DNA from: Candidatus Moranbacteria bacterium GW2011_GWE1_49_15
GTDB taxonomy: Bacteria > Patescibacteriota > Minisyncoccia > Moranbacterales > GWC2-37-73
Direction: 5' to 3'
DNA: 38,620 nt
Assembly (NCBI GenBank): GCA_001003855.1
Contig: LCPX01000002.1
Span: 1 to 38,620, forward strand
Each line of letters starts with the position of its first letter. Positions within the stretch are counted from its first letter, which is position 1. Below are positions 20,249-33,082 of the stretch, piece after piece. The position numbers and the translations under genes are program-made. Under the pieces are notes generated by a model. That model did not search any database and had not been told where the DNA came from. It saw only the letters and a list, made by a program, of their open reading frames with translations.

Positions 20249-20614
20249 ATGAAGATGAAATCTTTCATGGCGCAGGAATTTTTCAAAAACGCTATCATCC
20301 AATGGGTCATGATAGTGTCTTTGCTTTTGAACGGGGCTTGCTGGGGCGTCCTTATATTTTTCATCAGGTCGGTTGATTTTCCTATCATATTGCACTATAA
20401 TGTATACTTCGGAGTGGATATCATCGGGGATTGGTGGCAAGCGTATTTCCTACCCCTGATAGCCCTTTCCGTGATGGCTGTGAACGTGCTATTGGCCCAT
20501 TTTTTCTATAAAAACGAGGAGAGGGTCATATCCTACCTGTTGCTGTTGGCTTCGCTGATTGTGCAGATAAGCGCTGCGATAGCCATTGGCGCGATAATAA
20601 GAATAAATTACTGA
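20249..20614 (+). CDS. Small membrane protein (3 TM)
   Basis: Hydrophobic helices, PIILHYNVYFGVD loop. Confidence 0.75.
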   Translation: MKMKSFMAQEFFKNAIIQWVMIVSLLLNGACWGVLIFFIRSVDFPIILHYNVYFGVDIIGDWWQAYFLPLIALSVMAVNVLLAHFFYKNEERVISYLLLLASLIVQISAAIAIGAIIRINY

Positions 20615-20615
20615 A

Positions 20616-22298
20616 ATGTTCAATTTTCCAGACCCCAAAACCAAGGATCCTAAACAATGGAGGTTGCAGCGGAGACTCGAGGTCATCCCCGGCACATTGA
20701 CGTGGTTGACCATCATCGGAATGTTCGCCCTTTCGTTCATAGTCCCCGTTTGGATAGCCGTGTTCATCATAGCTTTCGACATATATTGGATATATAGGAC
20801 CATTTTTATCACTACTTATTCCGTCGTAGCGTATAGGAAATTCCAAGAAGGCAAGACTATCGATTGGTGGGAGAGATGCCAGAATATCGTGGATCCGGCC
20901 AAATACGCCGAGGAGATTTCGGAGAGAATAGCCAAACTCAAAGGACAGTTGGGGGAGAGTTTGAGTTTTTTCCAGAAAAGGAAAGTGAAAAAAGAAATCA
21001 GGAAGCAGGAGACATTCTTGCAGAAGGTCCGGGAAATCGGGGAAAACAAGGACGAGATATTGGATTGGCGCAAGATATTGCACGTGGTGATGCTTCCCAC
21101 CGCCAATGAGCCGGCGGAGGTCATCGAACCCGCGATAGCGGCCATCGCCGACAGCAATTTTCCCAACCAGCAGATCATCATCCTGTTGGCGACCGAAGAG
21201 AGGGAGGATGAGAAGCGGAGGATGGAAAAGGTCAATCATCTCAAGAGTAAGTTCAATGGAGTTTTCCGTGATTTTTTGGTGACTACCCATGAAGTCGCCG
21301 CAGGGGAGTTGAAATGCAAGGCTTCGAACGCCACTTATGCTGCCAAAAAATTGCAGGCATATCTGGATGAAAGGGAGATCGATTACAAAAAAGTCATTTT
21401 TTCCAATTTCGATTGCGACAGCGTGTGCCATCCGCAATATTTCGCCGCGCTCACCTATGAATATATAACCGATCCGAAGAGGCTCCAACGCTCATACCAG
21501 CCGCTTCCGATGTACCACAACAACCTTTGGGACACCAATGCGTTCGTGCGCGTCATCGTGACGAGCTCTTCTTTTTGGCATATGTACCAGAGCACCAGGA
21601 TAGAGATGGTCACTTTCTCCTCGCACAGCGAACCTTTCGACACTTTGGTTAAAGTCGGTTTCTGGCCGGTGAACGTGATCAGCGAGGATTCCATAATCTA
21701 TTGGAAGTGTTATTCCTATTACCATGGGGACTATATGGTCAAACCTATTTATCTGCCTATTTCCCTGGATGCCGTGTTGGCGCACACCTATTGGCAGACG
21801 ATCAAGAACCAATATAAGCAGAAAAGGCGCTGGGCTTATGGAATCGAGAATTTCCCGATGATCATGCGCGCGATCTGGCCTGATAAGAAGATAAAGCTTT
21901 CTAAGAAATTGGGAATCGCTTCCGAGATGCTGGAAGGGCATCATTCCTGGGCCACCTCGTCTTTCATTTTGGCCGTTCTGGGATGGCTGCCGCTCATTTT
22001 CGGCGGTGCCGATTTCAATGAGAGCGTGATAGCGCACAATCTGCCCTTCGTCACCAGGTATCTGATGACGTTGGCTATGGGGGGGTTGATCGTTTCGATG
22101 TTTTTGAGTTTCCTGCTACTTCCTCCGCGGCCCGCGAAGTATTCCAGGAAGAGGTATATTTATATGTTCTTGCAATGGTTCTTGGTTCCGATCATAGCTC
22201 CGACGCTCGGCGCCCTTCCGGCCATAGATTCACAAACCAGGATATTGTTCAAGAAATATTTCGGAGAATTCTGGGTTACCGATAAGATCAGGAAATAA
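20616..22298 (+). CDS. Processive GT2 family membrane glycosyltransferase
   Basis: DCD, SED and QKRRW (D,D,D,QxxRW) with N- and C-terminal TM helices. Confidence 0.88.
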   Translation: MFNFPDPKTKDPKQWRLQRRLEVIPGTLTWLTIIGMFALSFIVPVWIAVFIIAFDIYWIYRTIFITTYSVVAYRKFQEGKTIDWWERCQNIVDPAKYAEEISERIAKLKGQLGESLSFFQKRKVKKEIRKQETFLQKVREIGENKDEILDWRKILHVVMLPTANEPAEVIEPAIAAIADSNFPNQQIIILLATEEREDEKRRMEKVNHLKSKFNGVFRDFLVTTHEVAAGELKCKASNATYAAKKLQAYLDEREIDYKKVIFSNFDCDSVCHPQYFAALTYEYITDPKRLQRSYQPLPMYHNNLWDTNAFVRVIVTSSSFWHMYQSTRIEMVTFSSHSEPFDTLVKVGFWPVNVISEDSIIYWKCYSYYHGDYMVKPIYLPISLDAVLAHTYWQTIKNQYKQKRRWAYGIENFPMIMRAIWPDKKIKLSKKLGIASEMLEGHHSWATSSFILAVLGWLPLIFGGADFNESVIAHNLPFVTRYLMTLAMGGLIVSMFLSFLLLPPRPAKYSRKRYIYMFLQWFLVPIIAPTLGALPAIDSQTRILFKKYFGEFWVTDKIRK

Positions 22299-31786: not shown

Positions 31787-31858
31787 GCCACCCTAGCTCA
31801 ACGGTAGAGCTACTGTTTTGTAAACAGTGGGTTATCGGTTCAAATCCGGTGGGTGGCT
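31787..31858 (+). tRNA. tRNA-Thr(TGT)
   Basis: Acceptor GCCACCC/GGGTGGC, anticodon arm ACTGT-TTTGTAA-ACAGT, GGTTCAAATCC. Confidence 0.96.
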
Positions 31859-31917
31859 CAGGTTTTTTTAAATCCCTTCCTTGTCGATTTTTCAAATAAC
31901 AAAATTTGAAAAATCAT

Positions 31918-31999
31918 TGGGAAAGGGGTCGGGAAAACGGAAGTTTTCCCGGGGTGGAAATATTAAAACCGCAAGGTTTTAAAGAGTGCTATGCACGAC
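31918..31999 (+). repeat. 82-nt structured repeat, copy 1 (5' of tRNA-Tyr)
   Basis: 76/82 identical to 32228-32309; three hairpins. Confidence 0.9.
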
Positions 32000-32003
32000 A
32001 AAT

Positions 32004-32086
32004 GGGTAGTTGGCGGAGTGGTCAATCGCAGCTGACTGTAAATCAGCCGACTTCGGTCTTCGGGGGTTCGAATCCCTCACTGCCCA
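32004..32086 (+). tRNA. tRNA-Tyr(GTA)
   Basis: Acceptor GGGTAGT/ACTGCCC, GCTGA-CTGTAAA-TCAGC, long variable arm, GGTTCGAATCC. Confidence 0.96.
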
Positions 32087-32141
32087 CATGGTACGAAGTA
32101 CCTTATGAGATGTAAATGGGATGAGAAGTTTATGCCCTGAA

Positions 32142-32224
32142 AGGGATTCGAAGGGTGCGCCCGGGAAAAGCGAACAGCTTTACTTTTTCAGCACCCAGGT
32201 CCGAAGGAGAATCCCTCACTACCC
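32142..32224 (+). repeat. tRNA-3'-linked structured unit (Tyr copy)
   Basis: Starts with AGGGATTCGAA (antisense of the Tyr T-arm) and ends with a 15/16 copy of the Tyr 3' end; core 60/69 identical to 32784-32852. Confidence 0.85.
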
Positions 32225-32227
32225 CGG

Positions 32228-32309
32228 TGGGAAAGGGGTCGGGAAAACGGGAGTTTTTACGGGGTGGAAATATTAAAACCGCAAGGTTTTAAGGAGCGCT
32301 ATGCGCGAC
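32228..32309 (+). repeat. 82-nt structured repeat, copy 2 (directly abutting tRNA-Thr GGT)
   Basis: 76/82 identical to 31918-31999. Confidence 0.9.
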
Positions 32310-32382
32310 GCCGTTGTAGCTCAGTTGGTAGAGCGTATCCATGGTAAGGATAAGGTCCGCGGTTCAATCCCGCGCAACGGCT
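32310..32382 (+). tRNA. tRNA-Thr(GGT)
   Basis: Acceptor GCCGTTG/CAACGGC, TATCC-ATGGTAA-GGATA, GGTTCAATCCC. Confidence 0.96.
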
Positions 32383-32451
32383 CAGGTAATCCGGAAATCG
32401 GCAACCGGCAACCAGTGTAATCAATAATGGGTAACCAAATCATTCAAAAAT

Positions 32452-32613
32452 ATGGGACACATCAAGGACACAATGGCGAAGATGCGATGCTCTGAATGCA
32501 AGGAAATCAATTACTATTCTTCACGCAACAAGAAGAAGGTAAAGGAGAAACTTGAGATGAACAAGTATTGCAAGAGATGCCAGAAGCACACGCTTCATAA
32601 GGAAATGAAATAG
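32452..32613 (+). CDS. rpmG: 50S ribosomal protein L33 (Zn-binding type; absent from the ORF track)
   Basis: [53 protein letters not shown]. Confidence 0.95.
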
Positions 32614-32649
32614 TCCAAAGGGGCGGGCTTTGCCCGTCTCTTTAAAATT

Positions 32650-32720
32650 GCGGGCATCGTATAGTGGTAATACGGCGGTCTCCAAAACCGTTAACGTGGG
32701 TTCGATTCCTACTGCCCGTG
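32650..32720 (+). tRNA. tRNA-Trp(CCA)
   Basis: Acceptor GCGGGCA/TGCCCGT, GCGGT-CTCCAAA-ACCGT, GGTTCGATTCC. Confidence 0.96.
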
Positions 32721-32725
32721 CATTA

Positions 32726-32766
32726 TTCAAAAAGCATACCCCTTTATGATGGGTATGCTTTTTGAA
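32726..32766. terminator. Terminator hairpin after tRNA-Trp
   Basis: TTCAAAAAGCATACCC...GGGTATGCTTTTTGAA. Confidence 0.8.
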
Positions 32767-32783
32767 CATGTCATGAGATGTAG

Positions 32784-32869
32784 AGGGAATCGAAGGGCGC
32801 GCCCGGAAAAAGTGAACAATTTCACTTTTTCAGCGCCCAGGTCCGGAGGAGATTCCTACTGCCCGTGCA
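32784..32869 (+). repeat. tRNA-3'-linked structured unit (Trp copy 1)
   Basis: GGAATCGAA antisense of the Trp T-arm; ends with a 19/19 copy of the Trp 3' end (32851-32869 = 32704-32722). Confidence 0.88.
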
Positions 32870-32910
32870 AATGAAATAAAAGACGCCTCCATGGCGTCTT
32901 TTATTTTATT
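32870..32910. terminator. Terminator hairpin after Trp unit 1
   Basis: AAATAAAAGACGCC-TCCAT-GGCGTCTTTTATTT. Confidence 0.75.
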
Positions 32911-32922
32911 TTATTTTGTCTA

Positions 32923-33023
32923 AGTAGGAATCGAGCGTATATGGATGCGAGCGAGCATTCAGCGCTGCCCAGGGCAAGGAGTTTTCAGCAGAAAACGACG
33001 CGTATAATTCCTACTACCGTGCA
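32923..33023 (+). repeat. tRNA-3'-linked structured unit (Trp copy 2, different core)
   Basis: AGTAGGAATCGA is a 12-nt antisense of the Trp T-arm; ends ATTCCTACTACCGTGCA (degenerate Trp 3' end). Confidence 0.8.
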
Positions 33024-33082
33024 AAATAACAAAAGCGCTTTTGAAAAGGAGTGCTTTTTTCGGTTTTGAAGAATAATTTTAA

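Follow-up and report, generated by a model that had tools for sequence, protein, structure and literature searches.

Short folded units behind tRNA genes of a Candidatus Moranbacteria genome carry ends matched to their host tRNA and look like undescribed mobile cassette boundaries or tRNA-linked RNAs

The window, by which we mean the whole 38,620-nucleotide stretch of DNA analysed here, is contig C2 of a 58-contig, 0.87-Mb (871 kb) Candidatus Moranbacteria-type groundwater genome (G000). At positions 31787-32721 it carries four tRNA genes in the order Thr, Tyr, Thr, Trp (ARAGORN and Rfam), with a 53-codon ORF that looks like a putative ribosomal protein L33 gene between tRNA-Thr(ggt) and tRNA-Trp. 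Three units were read among and behind these genes, where the initial annotation had two, and the features of the region are as follows.

31918..31999, + strand: P repeat, copy 1, ending 4 nt 5' of tRNA-Tyr (nhmmer with P seeds; hairpins with GNRA-type loops read by eye)
32004..32087, + strand: tRNA-Tyr(gta), host of the first A unit (ARAGORN; Rfam tRNA 57.5 bits)
32105..32141, + strand: C-type unit fragment, starting with ATGAGATGTA (32105-32114) (comparison with C-type units on contigs C40 and C58)
32142..32152, + strand: A unit (Tyr), 5' arm, antisense to tRNA-Tyr positions 54-64 (sequence; A-unit alignment)
32153..32208, + strand: A unit (Tyr), core, stem 32153-32158/32191-32196 around a hairpin (fold; alignment of six of the seven A units)
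32209..32224, + strand: tRNA-Tyr 3'-end copy, 15/16, degenerate past that (sequence comparison)
32228..32309, + strand: P repeat, copy 2, abutting tRNA-Thr(ggt) (nhmmer with P seeds)
32650..32721, + strand: tRNA-Trp(cca), host of the second A unit and of the B unit (ARAGORN; Rfam)
32729..32763, + strand: terminator-like hairpin 1, 3' of tRNA-Trp (read from sequence)
32773..32782, + strand: ATGAGATGTA, remnant of a C-type 5' end (comparison with C-type units)
32784..32794, + strand: A unit (Trp), 5' arm, antisense to the Trp T-loop and T-stem, the closing pair being one G·T (sequence; A-unit alignment)
32795..32850, + strand: A unit (Trp), core, stem 32795-32800/32833-32838 and 11-bp hairpin 32807-32830 (fold; alignment)
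32851..32869, + strand: tRNA-Trp 3'-end copy, 19/19 (sequence comparison)
32877..32907, + strand: terminator-like hairpin 2 (read from sequence)
32924..32934, + strand: B unit (short form), 5' arm GTAGGAATCGA, an exact 11-nt antisense of the Trp T-loop and T-stem 3' strand
32935..33006, + strand: B unit, core (B HMM match 32928-33025, E 3e-22; model R1, E 3.8e-13)
33007..33023, + strand: second, degenerate tRNA-Trp 3'-end copy, closing the B unit (sequence comparison)
33031..33060, + strand: terminator-like hairpin 3 (read from sequence)

Two of these elements were absent from the initial annotation, namely the P repeat of about 82 nt that stands directly 5' of tRNA-Tyr and of tRNA-Thr(ggt), and the B unit at 32924-33023 that follows the Trp A unit. 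The pair of A units on which that annotation had centred was recovered as described: 32142-32210 and 32784-32852 form an ungapped alignment with 60/69 identities (86.96%; E 1.4e-12 when searched against all 871 kb of the genome), each ends in a direct copy of its host's 3' end (Tyr 32209-32224, 15/16; Trp 32851-32869, 19/19), and each begins with an arm (32142-32152 and 32784-32794) that is the antisense of the host T-loop and T-stem 3' strand. The arms also cover T54-G57, a part found only in the real tRNA and missing from the 3' copy. Both fold into an outer stem, an inner stem that bears the reported compensatory change (32153-32158/32191-32196 against 32795-32800/32833-32838) and an inner hairpin, which has 11 bp in the Trp copy, and no ORF lies inside the units. 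The shared ATGAGATGTA stands 5' of both units as stated, and corresponds to the start of the C unit type, complete on contig C40. Each tRNA-Trp 3' copy in the window is then followed by its own terminator-like hairpin.

Elsewhere in the genome the units follow a common plan, consisting of an antisense arm (T-loop plus T-stem), a folded core and a 3' copy with sharp borders that runs from A58 to N73 plus C and is usually followed by A. One or two downstream copies of the tRNA's own 3' end were found behind 12 of the 30 tRNAs of G000, a recurrence that excludes chance (the expectation, an estimate, is well under one). Current annotation is blind to the units, though about 40% of the tRNA loci of this genome carry them. 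Four core families, with names coined here, were distinguished in G000.

A / A' family: 70-130 nt; hosts in G000 Tyr, Trp, Gln, Ser and Lys
B family: about 100-200 nt; hosts in G000 Gln (twice), Lys, Arg and Trp
C family: about 50 nt; hosts in G000 Ser (two units in tandem), Asp and Gln
P family: about 80 nt; hosts in G000 Leu (twice) and Val

The P repeat is additionally nested in an A unit and, in the window, placed directly 5' of whole tRNA genes; its hairpins are capped by GNRA-type loops. All units read in G000 share the orientation of their tRNA, as do the 47 B hits with a same-strand upstream tRNA, and many of the 3' copies are followed by a terminator. One core type can carry different host-matched arms, A' being found with tRNA-Lys in G000 and with tRNA-Trp in G001, a genome of the same genus.

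That the 5' arm tracks its host tRNA, as proposed from the two A units, was borne out in a larger set of 44 B units and seven A units. A B-family HMM gave 79 hits in G000 and in sampled loci (some picked for a tRNA locus, others via B or A matches), and 71 once eight from duplicated contigs were removed; a same-strand tRNA lay at most 700 nt upstream of 47 of them, most others being at contig starts or inside arrays, and the 44 units having both a 5' part and a host formed the test set. The B arm is complementary to host positions 53-65, with a perfect 12/12 match in 17 of the 44 units, and varies in length from 9 to 19 nt with its end always at position 53, reaching up to 7/7 acceptor positions. 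Arms matched their own host with a mean of 11.07/14 as compared to 8.99 for other hosts (0 of 2000 permutations reached the own-host value), and at hosts whose T-loop 5' half is variant (GTCCGA or TTCAAAT) the complementary variant arm was present in 6/6 units, as against 0/38 others. T-loop positions 54-57, which the arm tracks, are absent from the unit's own 3' copy. The 3' copy of B units was 15/15 in 15 of 42, at least 13/15 in 25 of 42 and below 13/15 in 17 of 42. The seven A units (Tyr, Trp, Gln, two Ser, Lys and Ala) behaved in the same way, with an antisense arm of 16 nt at Ala and an inner hairpin found in three compensatory versions. In one genome of another family with B hits (G178) both arms are changed jointly, away from the host T-stem. 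A choice of target by base pairing, as raised in the initial annotation, is possible and gains from the tracking of positions 54-57, while copy-correction by the neighbouring tRNA gene would predict the same match of arm and host.

The core is a covarying structure, as the pairing tests of 45 B units (three helices, 19 pairs; shuffles and slid registers as controls) indicated. Paired cells amounted to 93.8% against 85.7% in shuffles (0/500 reached the observed value), pairs changed on both sides were 11 of 19 against 5.8 (0/500), and only 22-48% of cells were paired in the slid-register controls. In helices P1, P2 and P4 of 63 units, G·T combinations outnumbered A·C by 55 to 10, and by 30 to 1 in P4, one pair of which is A-U in 31 units, G·U in 13 and G-C in 1; this excess identifies the tRNA-sense strand as the folded strand, which fits either an RNA or one specific DNA strand. 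The loops and junctions of the core are conserved in sequence across genera.

Units also occur in arrays, which mix subtypes and are not simple tandem copies: locus L003 holds six B units, all different and about 10 nt apart, and contig C40 has A, B and C behind tRNA-Gln. Protein-coding cassettes bounded by units were likewise observed, including one behind tRNA-Pro in which 2.9 kb of ORFs without Pfam hits lie between two B units, both with Pro-type ends, a 9-kb array in which each ORF is followed by a terminator and a Gly-type B unit, and an AbiEii cassette flanked by B units. Loci L096, L288 and L289 show such arrays, with a unit closing each gene cassette. Gly-type and Pro-type units thus stand behind protein-coding cassettes, kilobases from any tRNA. 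Pfam returned nothing informative for the cargo ORFs except an aldose-epimerase fragment and AbiEii, and one cargo ORF was present in 1 of 33 family genomes. Turnover at the same tRNA genes was observed both in a congener and in co-occurring relatives. G001 is without the A unit after Tyr and without P repeats, carries an A' unit after Trp where G000 has A plus B, and has after Arg(tcg) a B subtype unlike that of G000. In relatives' contigs from the same samples, the gap between tRNA-Tyr and tRNA-Thr is only 16 or 34 letters; these contigs belong to other organisms, since 15 of 87 letters differ on the tRNA-Tyr piece.

Of 41 related genomes, 25 matched a query made of the window's A and B units; they comprise 20 of the 24 members of the same family and 4 of the 16 genomes from the order's other families. 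Among 151 genomes drawn from across the class, a B covariance model had hits in four, namely G000, one family member (G002) and two genomes of other families (G130 and G178), whose units are likewise behind a tRNA (Trp, Ser) with matched ends. The distribution of B is patchy, covering most of the family, with scattered occurrences in the rest of the class. Searching genome and viral contigs with a 17-nt degenerate B pattern gave mostly chance matches; they include contigs of Candidatus Moraniibacteriota, Moranbacteria, Parcubacteria and Patescibacteria, and the viral ones are probably due to chance.

The enzymes that might move such units were surveyed in G000 and in the 41 genomes, and none co-occurred as a partner; a search for tyrosine or serine recombinase or HUH genes had been suggested in the initial annotation. 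The single tyrosine recombinase ORF of G000 is Xer-like (281 aa, contig C9) and lies far from the units, and neither a serine recombinase, a reverse transcriptase (PF00078) nor an IS110 enzyme (PF01548) was found in this 87.5% complete genome. Tyrosine recombinases (PF00589) are present in nearly all of the 41 genomes, with or without B, and being universal are uninformative; serine recombinases (PF00239) do not follow B, being missing in 7 of the 25 B-positive genomes, G000 included, and nor do Y1 transposases (PF01797), with no hit in 11 of the 25. The arrays inspected contained no tyrosine recombinase gene. Two resident elements of G000 were rejected as the source of the units: a frameshifted IS200 (contig C19), whose own ends are unrelated, and a RAYT-like gene (contig C11), whose associated palindrome is different.

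The reading that we place first, tentatively and short of calling it probable, is that the units are attC-like, ORF-less, cis-acting mobile cassette junctions whose site of recombination is the tRNA 3' end. Cassette-like architecture, turnover and host-matched direct repeats make insertion by recombination in the tRNA 3' end the best explanation, and the sharp borders of these repeats, their recurrence behind 12 of 30 tRNAs, the mixed arrays, the unit-bounded gene cassettes, the patchy distribution, the use of one core type with different arms and the covarying fold of one strand are all consistent with it. From the same features we infer that units were placed by recombination rather than by duplication, and the fold would then be the recombination substrate. 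A mobile unit would begin with the copy spanning A58 to N73 plus C, followed by a terminator of its own, in some cases cargo genes, then the antisense arm and lastly the folded core, and would enter by recombination inside the T-loop or 3' end of a tRNA gene, or in an earlier 3' copy. The tRNA would be rebuilt from the copy and terminator of the incoming unit and the old 3' end displaced downstream, so that repeated entries could generate mixed arrays and gene cassettes each closed by a unit. The tRNA-sense strand would fold, with arm and 3' copy forming stem P1, which would close a conserved multi-helix core, the part recognised in trans; the enzyme could possibly be the universal Xer-type recombinase, a serine recombinase supplied in trans, or RecA working on single strands taken up from outside. 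Of the tRNA-targeting cassette proposed in the initial annotation, the ORF-less nature, the host-matched arms and the covarying core stood, and arrays and gene cassettes resembling those of attC sites were added to it; a co-occurring recombinase did not emerge.

Integrons offer one comparison. As with attC sites, the units are imperfect inverted repeats that fold on one strand and conserve their structure; each integron cassette also ends in a structured site whose outer stem holds the crossover-side repeat, and integron arrays also assemble unrelated cassettes with orphan and toxin-antitoxin genes. In the units, however, the primary site is the tRNA T-loop and 3' end and not attI, no IntI gene adjoins the arrays inspected, the cores are conserved in sequence, and the arms are copied from the host tRNA. 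The core boxes of attC sites follow the consensus RYYYAAC ... GTTRRRY (R''/R'); the units lack both boxes, and the T-loop GTTCGAA does not fit GTTRRRY. Several observations also speak against cassette junctions: no recombinase co-occurs, core loops and junctions are conserved across genera, unlike those of attC sites, the match of the arm at T-loop positions 54-57 would be needless for a hairpin that requires P1 only, the joint arm change in G178 suggests that P1 itself is under selection, and the G·U excess, the GNRA-type loops of P and the terminators fit a transcribed RNA at least as well.

The close rival, which we regard as rather unlikely when taken by itself, is that the units are genes of structured non-coding RNAs, transcribed from the tRNA-sense strand as tRNA trailers or from their own starts, whose 3' part mimics the T-stem and acceptor strand. 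Such an RNA could be handled by, or act as a decoy for, the enzymes of the tRNA 3' end, or could pair with the cognate tRNA or pre-tRNA; stem P1 would close the fold, and the arms would be host-matched because the function needs the match. The initial annotation had offered an RNA as its own alternative, and the G·U excess (55 G·T against 10 A·C in the stems, and the P4 pair that alternates between A-U, G·U and G-C) and the GNRA-type loops fit it at least as well. The shared orientation with the tRNA, the terminators after many 3' copies, the junction sequences kept across genera, the tracking of positions 54-57 of the real tRNA (6/6 variant hosts against 0/38) and the joint arm change in G178 argue for an RNA too, as do some Lys arms that cover all seven acceptor positions, giving a minihelix-like stem. 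An RNA accounts less readily for Gly-type and Pro-type units after protein-coding cassettes kilobases from a tRNA, for arrays of up to six units, for 3' copies degenerate to below 13/15 in 17 of 42, and for congeneric species that lack or swap units at the same tRNA. Scans with Rfam 15 at permissive E-values, covering the window region and eight other loci, yielded no family at its gathering score and no ribozyme family. The TD-2 RNA (RF03162) has a three-hairpin layout like that of the units and reached 42.9 bits on contig C1 of G000 against a gathering score of 48.7; this match spans the terminator and the 5' half of an A' unit and not a whole unit, and TD-2 matched no second unit among the loci scanned. 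The cassette-junction and RNA readings may both hold, if mobile modules encode the RNA.

It is improbable that the units are passive REP/BIME-like palindromes, matched to the tRNA by template switching (quasi-palindrome correction) and gene conversion. T-loop, terminator and antisense arm would then be parts of a single long imperfect palindrome, cores would have spread by T-loop homology and by homologous exchange between tRNA and 3' copy after DNA uptake, and no dedicated enzyme would be required, which agrees with the lack of any recombinase that co-occurs with the units. In line with this, the tRNA 3' part, the terminator and the arm form a single hairpin longer than 40 bp, Rfam models scored the Pro locus L083 as microRNA-precursor-like, and loci on contigs C40 and C1 read alike. 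Arms of 9 to 19 nt that always end at position 53 and track positions 54-57 would also be expected, and at L295 a rearrangement at the arm is seen, where a recombinase gene, a terminator and a tRNA-Glu antisense run straight into a B core; per this locus, the arm can replace the tRNA site in inverted form or act as an inversion partner. The compensatory changes in core stems and the G·T excess of one strand nevertheless indicate a selected fold, the G·T pairs in P1 and the paired arm change in G178 show that the arm does not simply copy the host, and the sharp A58 border of the 3' copy in all core families is not predicted, so that the passive model accounts for the copying of the arm and not for the selected fold. 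REP, BIME and REPIN elements with their RAYT enzymes resemble the units as multi-copy extragenic hairpins that follow genes and form arrays, whereas the arms of the units vary with the neighbouring tRNA, the RAYT-like gene of G000 is linked to another palindrome, and 11 of the 25 B-positive genomes are without a Y1 transposase hit.

A further, distinctly improbable reading takes the unit as a guide, in which the arm would base-pair to the tRNA gene's sense strand, at positions 53-65 and further, and the 3' copy to its antisense strand (58-74), so that a small folded RNA or single strand would read both target strands and direct a host or trans-acting recombinase. The unit would then be a homing module free of protein genes and re-aimed by changing its two ends, by a logic like that of IS110 bridge RNAs and IS200/IS605 guides. 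IS200/IS605 elements and their ORF-less derivatives have single-strand hairpin ends, act strand-specifically and read the target by an internal guide pairing of 4-5 nt beside the hairpin, with no copy of the target; the units do have a target copy, and the ends of the G000 IS200 are unrelated to them.

The remaining reading, that the units are decayed, inactive att scars of tRNA-targeting integrase or serine-recombinase islands, is the least probable, and the G016 Glu island (L326), the only one with a readable far junction, speaks against it: there, a short host piece from about position 64 is left upstream of both the host terminator and a B unit that was resident before the island, as it lies beyond that terminator. 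This separate junction rejects serine-recombinase islands as the source of the units, and they explain neither the units nor the A58 border at which the 3' copies start. Large serine recombinase genes do converge on tRNA 3' ends in these genomes (5 of 7 loci, and 12 of 20 regions that include L307 and L312 from the seven, L307 being counted among the 12), and one island heads the Gly array of G013. The other nine of the ten islands gave only chance-like matches, all with 3 mismatches, when up to 3 mismatches in 16 nt were allowed, and no B hit (two of the islands run to the contig end after 6.5 and 17.4 kb), and double-stranded, protein-binding arms would not covary as helices. In a preprint on the tycheposons of Prochlorococcus (10.1101/2020.12.28.424599), partial tRNA 3' copies, the classic mark of such islands, denote successive insertions, and the islands stack. 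A direct repeat of the tRNA 3' part likewise flanks the insert in our units, which differ in being 70-200 nt long, in lacking a recombinase, and in their antisense arm and covarying core; where serine-recombinase islands insert in these genomes, they enter upstream of resident units and through a different junction.

A search through the full texts of papers turned up no description of such units, whose appearance is that of a mobile cassette boundary, or a tRNA-linked RNA, of an undescribed kind. If they are recombination modules, they would constitute a cassette-capture system of ultra-small Patescibacteria in which tRNA genes serve as docking sites and an own integrase gene is absent, which would help to explain how reduced genomes gain orphan and defence genes, and would provide a natural case in which two short, exchangeable arms specify the target. 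If they are RNAs, they would form a large, unreported family of tRNA-linked structured RNAs with a built-in mimic of the tRNA 3' half, with a bearing on tRNA processing or tRNA protection in organisms with minimal RNA machinery.

A repeat of about 80 nt, P, has three hairpins with GNRA-type loops at their tips. It ends 0-4 nt before the whole tRNA genes Tyr, Thr-ggt and Arg-tct, and is absent at the same tRNAs of the congeneric genome G001. At other sites it serves as the core in a unit of the arm-core-3' copy type (antisense T-arm of the host tRNA, folded core and repeat of the tRNA 3' end) or is nested inside a unit of core family A. In some units, about 20 nt forming a GC-rich hairpin separate the T-stem part of the 3' copy from its acceptor part.

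Window 31918-31999 and 32228-32309: P repeat copies, with others on contigs C4, C1 and C6 of the same genome (G000)
Related-genome loci L125 and L143 (3' copies of tRNA-Glu) and L005 (Lys): units with a hairpin inside the 3' copy

In G001, an intron-like insert, about 210 nt long, interrupts tRNA-Thr(ggt) in its anticodon loop, and putative GIY-YIG-like small ORFs, assigned by eye, follow tRNA-Tyr and precede tRNA-Trp, the latter ORF adjoining a duplicated 5' fragment of tRNA-Trp. In G000, a palindromic repeat, about 35 nt long and present in several copies, interrupts a RAYT-like Y1 transposase ORF in frame, and a 10-nt stretch is common to this repeat and the first hairpin region of some units of core family B. 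An IS200-type element of the same genome carries a frameshifted tnpA gene and has end hairpins of its own.

L014 (G001, contig C1) about 1140-1410, 780-1100 and 1720-2080: split tRNA-Thr(ggt) and small ORFs near tRNA-Tyr and tRNA-Trp
G000 contig C11 about 20380-21100, minus strand: RAYT-like Y1 transposase ORF
G000 contig C19 1560-2130: IS200-type element

A shorter class of serine recombinase genes has no tRNA after the gene. In its place stand about 200 nt of conserved, hairpin-rich sequence, and then a small membrane-protein-like ORF. Genes for large serine recombinases, of about 500-600 aa, are convergent with tRNA genes of many specificities, their open frame often entering the tRNA 3' end; in the related genome G013, one is accompanied by genes for an AAA_25 ATPase and a CHC2 primase finger.

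L312, L314, L317, L319, L320 and L322, within about 300 nt downstream of the recombinase stop: conserved hairpin-rich sequence
L292, L294, L296, L298, L299, L301 and L306-L325: large serine recombinase genes convergent on tRNA genes
L295 (genome G022, contig C22) 2900-3130: junction of serine recombinase gene, tRNA-Glu antisense and B core

At L295, a serine recombinase gene is followed by its terminator, the antisense of tRNA-Glu 73-53 and a B core. As far as position 53, no letter differs from the junction between recombinase and tRNA in another genome, which suggests either integration into the unit arm or inversion at it. The large serine recombinase loci look like islands of a tRNA-targeting type that is common in this order.
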